Shown: positions 5,691-14,889 of the stretch, one piece after another
Layout of the letters: each line of letters starts with the position of its first letter
Position numbering within the stretch: the stretch's first letter is position 1
Assembly: GCA_943355055.1 (NCBI GenBank)
Contig: CALREA010000001.1
Span: 26,722 to 90,721, forward strand
Source of the DNA: Candidatus Peribacteria bacterium
GTDB taxonomy: Bacteria > Patescibacteriota > Gracilibacteria > UBA1369 > UBA12463
Length of the DNA stretch: 64,000 bases
Direction of reading: 5' to 3'
The notes under the pieces: generated by a model
The model's input: the letters and a program-made list of their open reading frames with translations, nothing else
Told to the model about the DNA's origin: nothing
Database searches by the model: none
Position numbers and translations under genes: made by a program

Positions 5691-5767
5691 CGACCAGAAG
5701 CCATAAAGCTTTTGCTAATTATTGCAACACAGTACGGCGGCACAAAGCTGAGATTTGTGATATAATA
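5691..5767 (+). promoter_or_regulatory. promoter/operator module, copy L (extended -10 TGaTATAAT at 5758-5766, palindrome CACAAA-N7-TTTGTG at 5741-5759)
   Basis: ~92% identical (6 mismatches in 77 nt, hand alignment) to the reverse complement of 14813-14889. It lies immediately upstream of the small ORF and giant ORF operon. Confidence 0.6.
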
Positions 5768-6109
5768 ATGGGATATTTTTATTGCATTCCCATGTCATCA
5801 ATCACGCTATCTCAGCTCATTAAAAAGAGCCTTCTCATCTCGCCTGACATGAAGGAGGATCTCACTCGTAAAATAACTACATTTACGGAATTTCAGCAGC
5901 AAGAAATGATCGAGGCCATTGAGGCATCAGAAAAAGACCTCGAGCAAATTCTCGATCATGCCATCAGTAATGATCCAAAAAAGCTCACCATAATCCAGCA
6001 GAAACTCGACGATGTATGGAAGCGGTATGTGAAGGAGGTGGAAAAAGTTTCAGAATCGGCGGAAACAACACAGGAACAGGTGCTGCTCGATCAGCTCGAT
6101 CAGGAATAA
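5768..6109 (+). CDS. small acidic hypothetical protein (likely real start ATG 5792, 105 aa)
   Basis: ORF rich in E/D/Q with a coiled-coil-like character. It ends 12 nt before the giant ORF. The ATG at 5768 abuts the -10 box, so 5792 (MSSITLSQL...) is the more plausible start. Confidence 0.6.
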   Translation: MGYFYCIPMSSITLSQLIKKSLLISPDMKEDLTRKITTFTEFQQQEMIEAIEASEKDLEQILDHAISNDPKKLTIIQQKLDDVWKRYVKEVEKVSESAETTQEQVLLDQLDQE

Positions 6110-6121
6110 AACAAACAAACT

Positions 6122-9100
6122 ATGGCAGAACAGAACGCTATAAAAACTCAACAGAAACGACTCGATGCCATCGATCAGAAAGAAGATCGGGAAGTTCTGG
6201 TTGGCGAGAAAAAATATGGGGATGTTATATTCGGGAAAGTAGCCTCCCTCACTCGTAAAATTGATACCGATGCGGGTATTACCGATGAGCGCGTGAAGGC
6301 GCTGCCGGCGTTCCGGAAGCTCAAGCAGGATGCCATGAATACAGCCCACGACGAGCTGAAAAATATTGACGAGAAAAACATCGATGCAGCAACCAAGAAG
6401 CTCGAACTCACCATTCGTCAGCTCGAAGTCAAGTTTGAGAAGATGAAAGAGCTTACGCCGCTCATGGACACATTCGAGAAGTTCCAAAAAATGTTTGGCG
6501 CATTGCCGTTTCTGCGTGATTGGATGACGCTCTATACCGCTATCGATCCGACCAAACGAGCGCCACCCGAGACGATGATGAAGGATATGGAAAAGCTCAT
6601 GAGTATCGGTGGTGGATATGCTCCGGCAGGAGAAATGGTGAAACATATGGAACTCGATGTCGTAAATCTGATGGGTGCGTACTTGCGCGGAGATCGAGCG
6701 ACAGCCGACATGACGATCATCGTACTCAGTGAGCGCCTCGCATTCGCTCGGCGCGTCACAGAACACCTCCCCAAAATCAAAGAAGAACGCAAAAAGATCG
6801 AAACATCAATCCGTGAGTATGAGTCGCATAATGCCGCGCTGCGAACCGCCATCAGTTCGGGTCGTCCGTTGCAATTCATGAAGGGCCTCGAGCAGAGCTA
6901 TCTCGATGGAATCAAGCTCATGCCGGCATTGAAAAGTATGACGAAGTGGGAAAAAGAACTCACAGGAGAAACGAACGGTCGCGTGTCAGTAGGATATGAG
7001 AAATTATTACCCAATGAAGTTCGCAAAGAAGTAACATTTACGACCATCGCTATTGATGGCCAGGGTAAGCCAAAAGATATGCCTGCGAACATTCCTCTTA
7101 CGCAGGAAGCGATGGTGAGAACGGAAGAAACCCTCCAGGGTCAGCTCCTCATGATCCGTCGTGGTATCTATCTCACGACTAAGGATCAAAAATACAAATC
7201 GTACTTCGATCAGAGTCAGGAGAAGATGACGAGCCGATTGATTGATGACGCGTTGCAATATCTACAGGATGCTCAACAAGCAGATCATCAGGAGTCTCCA
7301 CGCTCTATACTTGAACCTCTTCAAGCAAGCGATTTTGACGGAAATCAGACAAAAGAAATTCATCAGTACATGGGTATTATCGCCGGCAACTTCGACAGTA
7401 TACAGCGAATGCAGCCGGAGAATCCCATCGGAGCCGCGCAAGAAAACTCACTGTTTCAAAAACGGGTTCTTTCTCTCAGGAAAAAACTGGGAGCTGGTGG
7501 TGTCGATGCGAATGCGAATACCACCACCATACTCGGTAATGAAGCACAATTCCTCGGTACCAAACTCATGAATTTTTCGAAACTCAAAGAGCAATCTCCT
7601 AAACAACACGAGGCATTCACGAATATTCTCAACACCTACCTCCAACAATCACGCGCTCTTTCCGGCCAGATGCTCACGCAAAATCCAATCATCGGCGAGT
7701 TCCAGCAACAGAGTGTGGATGCTAAGCAGATGTTTTCTGGCCTTTCCACAACTTTCCAGAACCTCTCCGTCAAAATAGAAAAAACAGGCGAGGGATTTTC
7801 TGAGTTGGATATGGATGATATCAAAAAAGAAATTACCACTTTCCGATCGCGAACATCATATAAATTTCTCAAAGGCTCACAAGCAATGAGTGTCCTGCAG
7901 GAGATGAAAAAATACATGAGCGATCCATCGCTAATCCCTCCGAAAGATTTGGCCATGATCAAGCAGGCCGAACAATCGATTTTGCAAAGCCAGATGGCGC
8001 TTCAGCAGATCGATCAGACATGCGAGCAACTCATGGGGATGAGTGGATATGGGGTAGGGAAGAATCTTATTCTCAGTCATCTGAAATTAATCGCGAAGAT
8101 TGCGGCGGCAGTAATCGGTGCCGTCGTAGTAGGTCAGGTGATTGCAGCAAGTGGTGGGCTGGGAATTGTTGCCGCAGGTACGGGATTGGGAGAGAAGGTG
8201 CTTGAGTTTCTTGCGATAAATGCACTTATTGGAACGGGCGCTACAGCTGGATCGGCTATTGGCGATAGTCTCATCGAGCAAAATATGAACGCTTTTCAAA
8301 AAGATCAAATTATTCAATCTTGGGTGAGAAATGTAGCGATGTCTACGGCTGCTGGCGCACTTAGTCCACTTCTCGGTACCGGTATGGGCAGAGTTTCCGC
8401 GACCTCCATGAAAATGATGCAGCAAAGTCGCCTCGGATTCATCCGTACTGCTGGTGCTAACATAGAAGCCCGCGCCCTCAAACAAGCCTTAGCCGCAAAC
8501 GCCGAACGCCATCTCTCCGGCAACATATTCAAAAATATGCTCAGAGAAACCAAAGAAGAACTCTTCGAAGAAGGTCTCGAAGCCACAGGTCGTGCCATTG
8601 CACCTGATGATCCTTCCTTAGGTTTTGCTTTTTCTCTGCTGGGTTCTGCATATGGACATGGAAAGAGGGTGGAGGGGGAAAAAACGATGCCAAGATATGT
8701 CATGAGTCCCTCCGAGCACACCACTGCACGCCAACAATACATCAACAATGTGCGGGATGGGAAAGCCGACAATTATGCCGGAGAGATCGATGATTTCCTT
8801 GCAATGGGGCGAGTGGTAACCGATGAACAGGGCATCCTTCACATAACTCGCGGGAATGAAACACTTTCTATACCAACATCCATTCCCGAGGGGAATATAT
8901 TCCGGAAATATAGGAAGTTATTCGGAAATGATTTTTTGAAACTAAAAGAGTTCATGCGATTTTTAGATGATGTTCACGCTCGGCCGAATGGAGAAAAACT
9001 TCTGAAGGCGATCGGCCACTGCAACACGAATAATATCAATATTCTAAAGGTACTCGTCGATCTCCCTAACTTAGAAAATCAAGAATTTCTTTATCACATA

Positions 9101-13590: not shown

Positions 13591-13622
13591 AGCGCATACA
13601 CATAAAAAATACCGCACCAACT

Positions 13623-14783
13623 CTAGCGCGTTTTCTTCCCGGGCGCAACATCCATCCGTTTAAACATCTCTGTTATCGCGACAACTTGAGGGACATAATT
13701 TCGACTGTCGGGACCATATGAGCCCATCCCCTGATCACCACGATGGGTCATGAAAGTGTAAATTTCGGCGGAATTGAAATTTTTGCGCACGTGATCCGGC
13801 AGACTCTCGGCCGTCGGATACTCATTAAGGAGATGAAAACAAAGCGCACGAATATTACCATCGCCGGCGTGATAGGCATCATACATGGCATAGACCAAGA
13901 ATCGTGTATCGGGGAGACCATAGCGTTGAATCACATCCAGTGGTCCACCGAGGTTACCGCGCTTGAGTGCCACGTACAAATTCTTAAAAAATTCAGCCGT
14001 CTTCGGTACGACTTTTTCGATATTAAACACATCCCCAGACTGCATTCCAAGTTCTTCAGCTCTCTTCGGCATCAGCTGGGTCAGCCCCTTCGCGGCACCG
14101 GGTTTCGACTCCAAACCTGCGTCGGGATTAAATCCGGACTCCATACCGCACATACCGGCAAACATATCGATCATCAGCTTCCGGCCATCCGCATCAAGCA
14201 TATCCCAGAGCGTATCAGTATCATTCTTTGCTTCTGTTTCCGTTCTGAATTTAAGTCCCTGTTCGAACAAATGAACGACATGCTGCCTGCGAGTTTCTTC
14301 TGGCGAAAATCTTACTTCGCTATTTCCAATAATCTGCTGGAATTTATTTCCACTGGTCATGAGGTCGGCATCGAGATTAACATGTTTCCTCTCTTCTTCA
14401 ACAAATGCTTTGTATTCTATTTTGTATTTGGCCCGATCTTTTTCATCCTTCGATCCCTGCAGAATAAGTAACTTCTTAGGTATGCCCACTTCCTTCTGAA
14501 TACTCCCATCAGGAAGGATAAAAAATATCTTACCGGGCTTCGAAGAAAAAATCCTATCAAACGTATTCCGCGCCATCTTGAGCGAAGGAGAATCCGGCCC
14601 ATAGGTCATGTTGCGATTGATACGTGGCGGCGGCGGCAAAACCTCCTGCACCTTCTGTAGAATTTGCCCCCGGAGCCTGCCGAGCATCGTTCCCGTGTTG
14701 GCACCATTCGGCACCGCAACTTCCGCTCGTGGTTGCTTTACGGATTGTTTTTCTGCACCGTGATGTTCAAAATATTCTCCCAT
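13623..14783 (-). CDS. SLT-domain lytic transglycosylase, no recognisable signal peptide
   Basis: SLT catalytic region MESGFNPDAGLESKPGAAKGLTQLMPKRAEELG and a downstream AYHAGDGNI motif. The N-terminal 60 aa are hydrophilic. Confidence 0.85.
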   Translation of the reverse strand: MGEYFEHHGAEKQSVKQPRAEVAVPNGANTGTMLGRLRGQILQKVQEVLPPPPRINRNMTYGPDSPSLKMARNTFDRIFSSKPGKIFFILPDGSIQKEVGIPKKLLILQGSKDEKDRAKYKIEYKAFVEEERKHVNLDADLMTSGNKFQQIIGNSEVRFSPEETRRQHVVHLFEQGLKFRTETEAKNDTDTLWDMLDADGRKLMIDMFAGMCGMESGFNPDAGLESKPGAAKGLTQLMPKRAEELGMQSGDVFNIEKVVPKTAEFFKNLYVALKRGNLGGPLDVIQRYGLPDTRFLVYAMYDAYHAGDGNIRALCFHLLNEYPTAESLPDHVRKNFNSAEIYTFMTHRGDQGMGSYGPDSRNYVPQVVAITEMFKRMDVAPGKKTR

Positions 14784-14812
14784 GGGTTGAGTTGGATATA
14801 TAGCTATCCACT

Positions 14813-14889
14813 AATTATATCACAAATCTCAGCTTTGTGCCGCCTTACCGTATTGCAATAATTAGCAAAAGATTTATGGCTTTGGGTCG
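14813..14889 (-). promoter_or_regulatory. promoter/operator module, copy R (inverted duplicate of 5691-5767)
   Basis: Minus-strand -10 TATAAT at 14814-14819 preceded by TGa. The palindrome is at 14821-14839. It lies 30 nt upstream of the SLT gene ATG (14783). Confidence 0.6.

Follow-up and report, generated by a model that had tools for sequence, protein, structure and literature searches.

We analysed a stretch of 64,000 nucleotides (64 kb; hereafter the window) from a Candidatus Peribacteria bacterium (contig CALREA010000001.1, positions 26,722 to 90,721), in which a small acidic open reading frame (ORF) and the gene of a 2237-amino-acid (aa) protein, here called the giant, run towards a gene pair encoding an SLT-domain lytic transglycosylase homologue and a YebC/TACO1-family protein, each pair being preceded by one copy of an inverted, promoter-bearing repeat. 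The most valuable result is that the giant belongs to a rare protein family, so far seen only in Peregrinibacteria/Peribacteria, which shows a polymorphic-effector architecture and has no connection with the trafficking domains known so far. We think it probable that three things meet in this place, namely a copied promoter segment, an independent polymorphic-effector-like cassette made of the small ORF and the giant, and a separate malic enzyme-SLT-YebC block. The closest named relatives of the window proteins come from Candidatus Peregrinibacteria / Peribacteria metagenome-assembled genomes (MAGs), i.e. from bacteria of the candidate phyla radiation (CPR), and the comparative loci (L numbers) and proteins (P numbers) were drawn from the same two groups. 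The window also forms part of an 82-kb metagenome contig in ENA (ERZ27280297 k141_1826540).

A word-based search retrieved only four relatives of the giant, while a profile of its N-terminal 870 aa, run against 1.84 billion representatives, reached 33 clusters, all but a few of which (some of these on short contigs) are 1000-2400 aa long. The N-terminal part of the giant is 54-68% identical to P0002-P0005, and between the giant and P0003-P0005 only about the first 850 aa are conserved, the remainder being unrelated; in some members of the family the shared part is confined to the first ~110-130 aa. The Pfam domains detected in family members are C-terminal and diverse, with P0020 carrying a Zeta_toxin domain at aa 1143-1314 (36.7 bits, above the curated cut-off) and other members carrying protein-kinase-like domains near their C-termini, a calpain-type protease, and FHA and WG repeats. 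The profile of the kinase cargo matches 517 PDB kinases from the glycine loop up to and including the catalytic loop (best E=1.8e-9), and this cargo is accompanied in the relatives by an HExxH region. Cargo is also found behind other N-termini or on its own: the member in L017 has a different N-terminus and a cargo segment common with P0003-P0005, and the kinase cargo occurs in L016 as a free-standing protein of 457 aa as well. A homologous gene of 183/184 aa (34-37% identity) follows the kinase cargo in two unrelated contexts and is, by its sequence and place, a candidate cognate or immunity-like partner of that cargo, and the Zeta cargo is followed by an HD-domain (HD_4) gene. The homologues thus combine a conserved N-terminal region with unrelated, exchangeable C-termini, as polymorphic toxins do, and because the cargo is swapped, includes Zeta, kinase and protease domains and is followed in places by candidate partner genes, the family bears the signature of polymorphic toxins or effectors.

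Two stretches of L016 (290-2802 and 10477-11829) hold the free-standing kinase cargo with its 184-aa partner, and also a second small ORF behind which stands a family member truncated to 342 aa; taken together, they look like an array of orphan modules. Scans for further relatives yielded only two loci in the GTDB genomes, both already collected, and none among the JGI metagenome proteins, and a degenerate DNA-pattern scan of metagenomes gave 120 chance matches, of which none codes for a relative.

The 2237-aa ORF and its internal hydrophobic block, both described in an earlier, sequence-only reading of this DNA, were confirmed, with one strongly hydrophobic, Gly/Ala-rich block lying at about aa 648-760. 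The conserved N-terminal part is composed of a portable module of ~110-130 aa, a helical region and this Gly/Ala-rich block (nt ~8063-8401), which would be the best candidate for membrane insertion or translocation. No Pfam or NCBIfam match was obtained for the N-terminal 870 aa, their profile found nothing significant in the PDB, and none of the known trafficking domains looked for (LXG, Rhs/PAAR, TPS/FHA-1, MafB-N and others) was found in them. The giant as a whole found nothing in PHROGs, NCBIfam or PADLOC, and the PADLOC models of anti-phage defence matched neither the four window proteins nor the 183-aa protein of the relatives. The C-terminal part, which is shared only with P0002, is mostly helical, with a recurring motif, [FY]x[DN][DN][IV]xxF, at aa ~930-1350, while the final ~250 aa, of mixed secondary structure, hardly differ between P0001 and P0002. 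The 183-aa downstream protein of the relatives was considered as a split-off C-terminus of the window giant and rejected, as the two have no similarity.

An acidic helical ORF of ~104 aa precedes the large gene in eight independent contexts (ten sequences with the second L016 cassette), and its family counts only 12 clusters of 103-112 aa in 5.8 billion sequences. The small protein shows conserved motifs at both ends (N-terminal LI..S.LL and C-terminal LL..L(D/E)) and has no Pfam, NCBIfam or PDB match; its family profile also found nothing significant in the PDB, and PHROGs gave a weak match only, of unknown function. The subfamilies of the small ORF co-vary with the type of giant N-terminus, i.e. 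with the N-terminal ~110-130 aa, and because of this co-variation the small protein probably binds that part of the giant as an adaptor or chaperone. The chaperone role proposed in the sequence-only reading is therefore a fitting one, given that the pairing is obligate in the eight contexts and that the subfamily tracks the giant N-terminus. Regarding its start, the ATG at 5768 (113 aa) begins 1 nt after the -10 hexamer of the promoter described below, and for this reason the ATG at 5792 (105 aa), which the gene callers chose, is the plausible one.

The members of this family might alternatively be resident, membrane-anchored scaffold or signalling proteins that consist of a cytoplasmic coiled-coil part, a membrane block and a sensor or enzyme domain that varies, and that have the small protein as their regulator. 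The kinase and FHA domains of family members are likewise typical of signalling proteins in bacterial membranes, the giant has no export signal, the window holds no secretion genes, and the window giant is without a toxin domain or an immunity gene, all of which would suit such a protein. However, we regard this as unlikely, because the Zeta-toxin and calpain-like cargoes, the wholesale swapping of cargo between different N-termini, the free-standing kinase-cargo-plus-partner module of L016 and the tandem cassettes of the same locus are hallmarks of polymorphic toxin loci and not of housekeeping signalling.

The arrangement of the genes in the relatives separates the cassette from the SLT-YebC pair. 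In L003/L004, L005-L008 and L009 the order is DHH gene, small ORF, giant (1670-1698 aa), 183-aa gene, then the convergent YebC gene, the SLT orthologue and malic enzyme, and the backbone of the clade formed by L003-L009 and L017 reads miaA-recJ-DHH-[cassette]-YebC-SLT-malic-SLH; the same backbone occurs in L017/L018, where the family member has 1605 aa and the small ORF is missing. In L016 two tandem cassettes lie upstream of the DHH gene, so that this gene stands between them and YebC-SLT. The small ORF and the giant stay paired in the eight contexts mentioned, four of which lack an adjacent SLT or YebC gene: in L002, the closest relative, the pair is placed between an inverted recJ and miaA (recJ | small-giant | miaA), in L014, a 591-kb Peregrinibacteria contig, it stands between unrelated metabolic genes, and in L010 and L015 it has other neighbours. 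SLT and YebC, for their part, are always together and adjoin the malic enzyme gene wherever the contig reaches that far (L003-L009, L017, L019). Since the cassette occurs without adjoining SLT/YebC and malic enzyme-SLT-YebC is conserved as a block of its own, the two are independent units, and their adjacency, as read from these gene orders, is shared backbone synteny within one clade and not independent co-occurrence.

This arrangement bears directly on the sequence-only reading, which had joined all four genes in one co-regulated surface or attack module, with the SLT opening peptidoglycan for the giant, the small protein as chaperone and YebC in feedback control, and which had named the synteny of the four genes among relatives as a check. 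Near-identical promoter segments do stand ahead of both pairs, the cassette adjoins YebC-SLT in L003-L009 and L017 and nearly so in L016, a signal-less SLT is what would be expected of an enzyme with a dedicated export route (its weak PHROG matches being to phage tail or internal-virion lysins), and the SLT and small-ORF promoters of the relatives share TGnTATAAT-N5-GATA, a pattern present only three times in the window. Nevertheless, a single module of four genes appears quite improbable, given that the synteny breaks in L002, L014, L010 and L015, that the constant neighbour of SLT-YebC is the malic enzyme gene and not the cassette, that the long promoter identity is absent in the relatives, that YebC is experimentally a translation factor (PMC12234827, PMC11990639), and that the window contains no cluster of machine genes. 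Of the claim that the four genes are wired to the same regulatory segment, what stands is the near identity of the two promoters; the four-gene system built on it, and with it the attack module, is left unsupported.

The YebC protein matches its Pfam domains over the full length (TACO1_YebC_N plus the second and third domains, E=2.2e-26 and 3.6e-48), and its gene overlaps the convergent gene of the giant by 4 nt, as first noticed from the sequence, the giant ending at 12835 and YebC at 12832. The YebC/TACO1 proteins have been shown to act in translation, as factors that resolve stalling at stretches rich in proline (PMC12234827, PMC11990639; for TACO1 see also PMC11381339), in view of which the role of feedback regulator once assigned to the window YebC is unsupported and reflects an outdated label; matching both Pfam domains in full, the window protein shows nothing unusual among them. 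The SLT domain was identified through PF01464 (E=1e-5, 25.5 bits against a cut-off of 21.3), and the motifs GMESGFNP, GLTQLMP and AYHAG are kept in four orthologues. The reported lack of a signal peptide holds, with no 19-aa window of hydrophobicity >1.4, no transmembrane segment and no in-frame start upstream, the ORF already beginning at the most upstream start codon. The profile of the SLT found nothing significant in the PDB and its PHROGs matches were weak only; the gene is not part of a secretion, pilus or flagellar cluster, and its neighbours are malic enzyme and YebC in all loci. With specialised SLTs (VirB1, EtgA and similar) the protein has in common the fold motifs, the catalytic Glu-Ser, a length of ~390-430 aa and conservation among relatives, but it differs from them in lying outside a machine cluster, in having no signal peptide and in being linked to malic enzyme and YebC. 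In a weak version of the four-gene idea, kept alive because the SLT export signal is absent, the SLT might by analogy leave the cell by the same route as the giant. A PPPP run was also observed at aa 50-53 of the SLT (14624-14635), whose gene is directly upstream of YebC; a polyproline link between the two was rejected, since PPPP is absent from the SLT orthologues, and the run is probably a coincidence.

The repeat that carries the two promoters is real and longer than first reported. Inverted copies of 77 nt with 6 mismatches had been claimed, and whereas the copies themselves were recovered, the count is 7 mismatches in 77 nt, with 6 only in the first 76. The gapped blastn alignment extends over 163 nt with 76% identity (E=1e-28; 5620-5782 against 14953-14798), the ungapped alignment over 113 nt with 83% (5670-5782 / 14798-14910), and the core of the two copies is ~91% identical. 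Both copies end in TGATATAAT (5758-5766 on the forward strand and 14822-14814 on the reverse strand), with copy 1 having the TG at 5758-5759, the -10 hexamer TATAAT at 5761-5766 and a transcription start that would lie near 5773 (GATA). A distance of 20-30 nt between the extended -10 and the operon ATGs had been given, and it is correct, the end of TATAAT being 25 nt away from ATG 5792 in one copy and 30 nt from ATG 14783 in the other; both copies thus contain a sigma-70 extended -10 (TGnTATAAT) at a suitable spacing to the start codon. The segment is not a generic repeat of the window: its core 23-mer AAAGCTGAGATTTGTGATATAAT occurs exactly twice in the 64 kb when up to 3 mismatches are allowed (0 expected), and besides there is one partial copy of 40 nt, placed directly after the miaA stop, which contains the palindrome TATGGTCGACCATA followed by a T-rich run. 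A similar element of 41 nt was located at the same miaA/recJ junction in L005-L008. A structured RNA or riboswitch was rejected, as the Rfam scan gave no match in the repeat and the minimum-free-energy folds of the copies differ (z-scores -2.0 and -0.9), and because of the missing Rfam match and common fold the repeat is best read as promoter DNA.

The specificity of this promoter differs among its parts. The extended -10 is a common promoter type in the window, standing ahead of many other genes, and that part is generic; it often lies so near the start codon that a leaderless or almost leaderless mRNA would result. Examples in which it ends only 2-6 nt before the annotated start were observed at 1131-1148, 18020-18003 (reverse strand) and 50774-50761 (reverse strand), e.g. 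TGCTATACTccacccATG of recJ, and the small ORF, the giant and the SLT gene all lack a visible Shine-Dalgarno sequence ahead of their starts; these spacings suggest that leaderless mRNAs are frequent in the Peribacteria source organism. The pattern TGnTAnnnT-N5-GATA is rarer, with three occurrences in the window, one in each repeat copy and one in the promoter of the RNase J-like gene (34574). The 11-mer CAAAGCTRARA has seven occurrences in the window against 0.11 expected, all in spacers, with two of them, 71 nt apart, in each repeat copy. In L002, L003 and L009 it occupies the -35 position of the orthologous small-ORF promoter, where L006 has a one-base variant, and it may be a candidate regulator binding site or promoter element; it was also seen upstream of the ribosomal protein L10 gene in L003.

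Comparison with the relatives indicates where the repeat belongs and when the second copy might have arisen. The orthologous small-ORF promoters in L002, L003, L006 and L009 keep the promoter-proximal part of the repeat, and the small-ORF spacer of L002 keeps the long version, with 83% identity over 93 nt to window copy 1; this is at least as conserved as the proteins (68% for the giant), suggesting that the segment is under constraint at the cassette. In L003, L006 and L009, in which the giant is ~55% identical in its N-terminal part, the promoters of the small ORF and of the SLT orthologue are of the same general type and share only TGnTATAAT-N5-GATA plus a few flanking bases, and for this reason the long identity in the window is attributed to a recent, lineage-specific copy. 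The two window copies (~91% in the core) are also more alike than copy 1 and its L002 orthologue (83%), which suggests a recent origin, or a recent homogenisation, of the SLT copy in this lineage. From the sequence, the long identity looks like a recent copy or a gene conversion.

Both spacers that bear the repeat are enlarged, the DHH/small-ORF spacer measuring 823 nt against ~140 nt in the relatives and the malic/SLT spacer 333 nt against 98-251 nt, and both are mosaics containing pieces that are repeated upstream of unrelated genes. A segment of the malic/SLT spacer recurs at ~45810-45950 upstream of an ABC-transporter operon, with a 42-nt core that is 98% identical; the copy at 15005-15046 is directed antisense into the malic enzyme gene. 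A segment of the DHH/small-ORF spacer recurs at 34328-34506 and carries a promoter-like TTGACT...TATAAG/TATAAT stretch and an AAATTTC-N-GAAATTT palindrome, and the stretch 5516-5585 repeats 2875-2944 in inverted orientation. Palindromes of the type (A)ATTTC-N6/7-GAAAT(T) were noted at 5367-5385 and 34458-34476 of the window and upstream of the SLT orthologue in L003, L006 and L009; their centres vary (CCCGGGG, GGCGCC, CACGTG, CACATG) and mostly stay self-complementary, and they could be an operator or hairpin element. Spacer copying between unrelated genes is therefore a general habit of this genome, which lowers the significance of the cassette/SLT pairing, and the promoter finding alone is a modest point. 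Its interest is that whole promoter-bearing spacer segments are copied between unrelated genes here, which can rewire expression quickly, and that such copying also creates inverted repeats coinciding with rearrangement breakpoints.

One may ask whether the inverted repeats are mainly recombination substrates or scars, marking a rearrangement hot spot in which the 9-kb segment between the repeats can invert and the promoter content is incidental. The repeats are indeed nested, with 1041-1080/5673-5712 flanking recJ-DHH, 2875-2944/5516-5585 flanking DHH and 5620-5782/14798-14953 flanking the four genes, and they coincide with rearrangement breakpoints, because recJ of L002 is inverted and abuts the repeat and the small ORF, exactly as an inversion at the first pair would give, and miaA has moved to the 3' end of the giant. 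We nonetheless hold this explanation to be rather improbable, as the only other assembly of the window strain (L140, 99.9% identical, its contig stopping within the giant gene), where the alternative orientation was looked for, shows no change of orientation, at least on the left side, the repeat contains a whole promoter at the correct distance from each of the two start codons, its promoter-proximal part is kept at the orthologous small-ORF promoters, and an inversion between the repeats would leave the pairing of genes and promoters unchanged.

On the reading that we prefer, the region upstream of SLT-YebC would have received, in this lineage, an inverted copy of a spacer segment of ~160 nt by ectopic recombination or gene conversion. 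The copied segment would bring the extended -10 promoter, a conserved start region (GGATA) and two CAAAGCTRARA motifs, and with both transcription units now read from near-identical signals, similar expression is plausible. The small ORF and the giant would form a self-contained two-gene cassette of a rare family built like polymorphic toxins or effectors, in which the ~104-aa acidic helical partner probably binds the N-terminal ~110-130 aa of the giant, the conserved ~850-aa N-terminal region may insert into or cross a membrane via the Gly/Ala block, and the C-terminal cargo would be exchanged between members, the cargo in the window being an unrecognisable region of 1386 aa with no downstream partner gene. 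SLT and YebC would belong to the separate conserved block with malic enzyme and stand beside the cassette through the backbone synteny of the clade.

Several points weigh against this reading. The window giant has no recognisable toxin or enzyme domain (no Pfam or PDB match to the C-terminal part), no immunity-like ORF follows it or the giant of L002, and an effector role for it is suggested by analogy with the family. Neither a signal peptide nor a domain of the LXG, WXG100, Rhs or CdiA type was found in the giant, the 64-kb window holds no secretion, pilus or flagellar cluster, and one family member, in L017, has no small ORF. The AlphaFold2 models had mean predicted local distance difference test (pLDDT) values of 47.8 for the N-terminal 870 aa (alignment of five sequences) and 37.8 for the C-terminal 1198 aa (two sequences), too poor for structural support. 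Transcription starts, operon structure and co-expression, as well as export, membrane insertion, toxicity, immunity and co-regulation, are predictions made from sequence. Moreover, the SLT is, like the giant, without an export signal, and its promoter carries the CAAAGCTGAGA motif of the cassette, which might leave room for a real functional link.

Among known systems, the polymorphic toxin systems of Zhang, Aravind and colleagues are reportedly built of a conserved N-terminal trafficking region, a swappable C-terminal toxin and a downstream immunity gene. The giant family resembles them in its conserved N-terminal ~850 aa with unrelated C-termini, in cargo shared across different N-termini, in the Zeta toxin, kinase and protease nature of the cargo, in the small gene after kinase cargo in two contexts, and in the free-standing cargo-plus-partner module and tandem cassettes. 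It differs in having no homology to a known trafficking or pre-toxin domain, in being much larger (1000-2400 aa) with a Gly/Ala membrane block in mid-protein, and, for the window giant, in lacking a recognisable toxin or a downstream immunity candidate. Single-chain translocating toxins and bacteriocins (colicin/pyocin-type, CNF/large clostridial toxin-type) have an N-terminal or central region with hydrophobic helices that could insert into a membrane, followed by a C-terminal catalytic cargo; the order of parts is the same in the giant family, and a downstream inhibitor-like gene is also present in its relatives, but there is no sequence similarity. The LXG toxins of the type VII secretion system b (T7SSb) have small helical Lap/WXG100-like targeting partners (PMC9600955, PMC10801868), and these partners may be, by analogy, the closest functional counterpart of the small protein, as the cassette too has a ~100-aa acidic all-helical protein directly upstream of the polymorphic protein, with a subfamily that co-varies with the helical N-terminal domain of the giant. 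The cassette has one such partner, however, and not two or three, and the giant has a large extra conserved region with the membrane block. At E<=1 the small protein gave no Pfam match to WXG100, DUF3130 or DUF3958 and the giant none to LXG, and no T7SS genes (EssC and others) were seen in the 64-kb window of the MAG; for complete Peribacteria genomes type II secretion, type IV pili and sortase are listed and T7SS is not mentioned (PMC4736985).

Going a step further, it is possible, if still doubtful, that the cassette represents an undescribed Peribacteria effector delivery family that kills or manipulates neighbour or host cells, with the ~104-aa adaptor, the ~850-aa membrane-inserting N-terminal module and the exchangeable cargo as its parts, and that it has come under common control with the signal-less SLT by a promoter conversion that includes CAAAGCTGARA. 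That motif also occurs in a few other spacers and could be the mark of a small regulon. To our knowledge, little has been learned of how CPR/Patescibacteria interact with hosts and competitors, and hardly any of their effectors are identified; the giant family would give concrete, testable candidates for such interactions in Peribacteria.

Table 1. Positions in the window of the genes, repeats and motifs discussed.
Feature	Position	Strand	Remarks
Partial third copy, distal part of repeat	1041..1080	-	40 nt, 85%; between miaA and recJ
Third repeated spacer segment	5263..5421	+	DHH/small-ORF spacer; recurs upstream of RNase J-like (beta-CASP) gene
Promoter-bearing repeat copy 1	5620..5782	+	upstream of small ORF; blastn
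Small acidic helical protein	5792..6109	+	105 aa, isoelectric point 4.6
Giant, conserved N-terminal part	6122..8674	+	aa 1-851, sharp end at ...AYGHGKRVE
Giant, variable C-terminal part	8675..12835	+	aa 852-2237 (1386 aa); shared only with P0002
YebC/TACO1-family protein	12832..13620	-	longest ORF 262 aa; gene caller start 13590 = 252 aa
SLT-domain lytic transglycosylase homologue	13623..14783	-	386 aa; catalytic ES motif intact
Promoter-bearing repeat copy 2	14798..14953	-	upstream of SLT-YebC; blastn
Second repeated spacer segment	14929..15060		malic/SLT spacer; recurs upstream of ABC-transporter operon
CAAAGCTRARA sites	5672, 5743, 14837(-), 14908(-), 34174, 45820(-), 56917		motif count

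The genes around these units are housekeeping genes, namely miaA, recJ, a second DHH-family protein, malic enzyme, an SLH protein, hisS, tsaD, cca, metK, PEP carboxylase and leuS, and no mobile-element genes were seen in the 64-kb window. Two further window genes may have a bearing on interactions between cells: a 1068-aa protein with Amidase_2 and SpoIID domains, a large cell-wall hydrolase (50757-53963, forward strand), and a Fic-domain protein adjoining tRNA-Gly(UCC) (36221-37243, forward strand).

The recJ/DHH spacer contains a 71-nt gene (2966-3036, forward strand) that matches only the tRNA-like domain of transfer-messenger RNA (tmRNA), with a score of 39.6 bits (E=3e-14) to the Rfam tmRNA model, below the gathering score, 324 internal model positions being replaced by 24 nt. 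The gene, which was not called by ARAGORN, has a G3:U70 pair in the acceptor stem and a CCACCA end, with a hairpin and T-run at 3048-3090, and it is kept in the recJ/DHH spacer of two relatives (L003 6628-6699 and L006 7539-7609); by these features it could be a minimal alanine-accepting RNA or an ssrA remnant. The 15-nt direct repeat GCCGGCTTATCATCT lies inside this gene (2988-3002) and again 105 nt downstream (3093-3107), an arrangement that resembles an attachment-site duplication.

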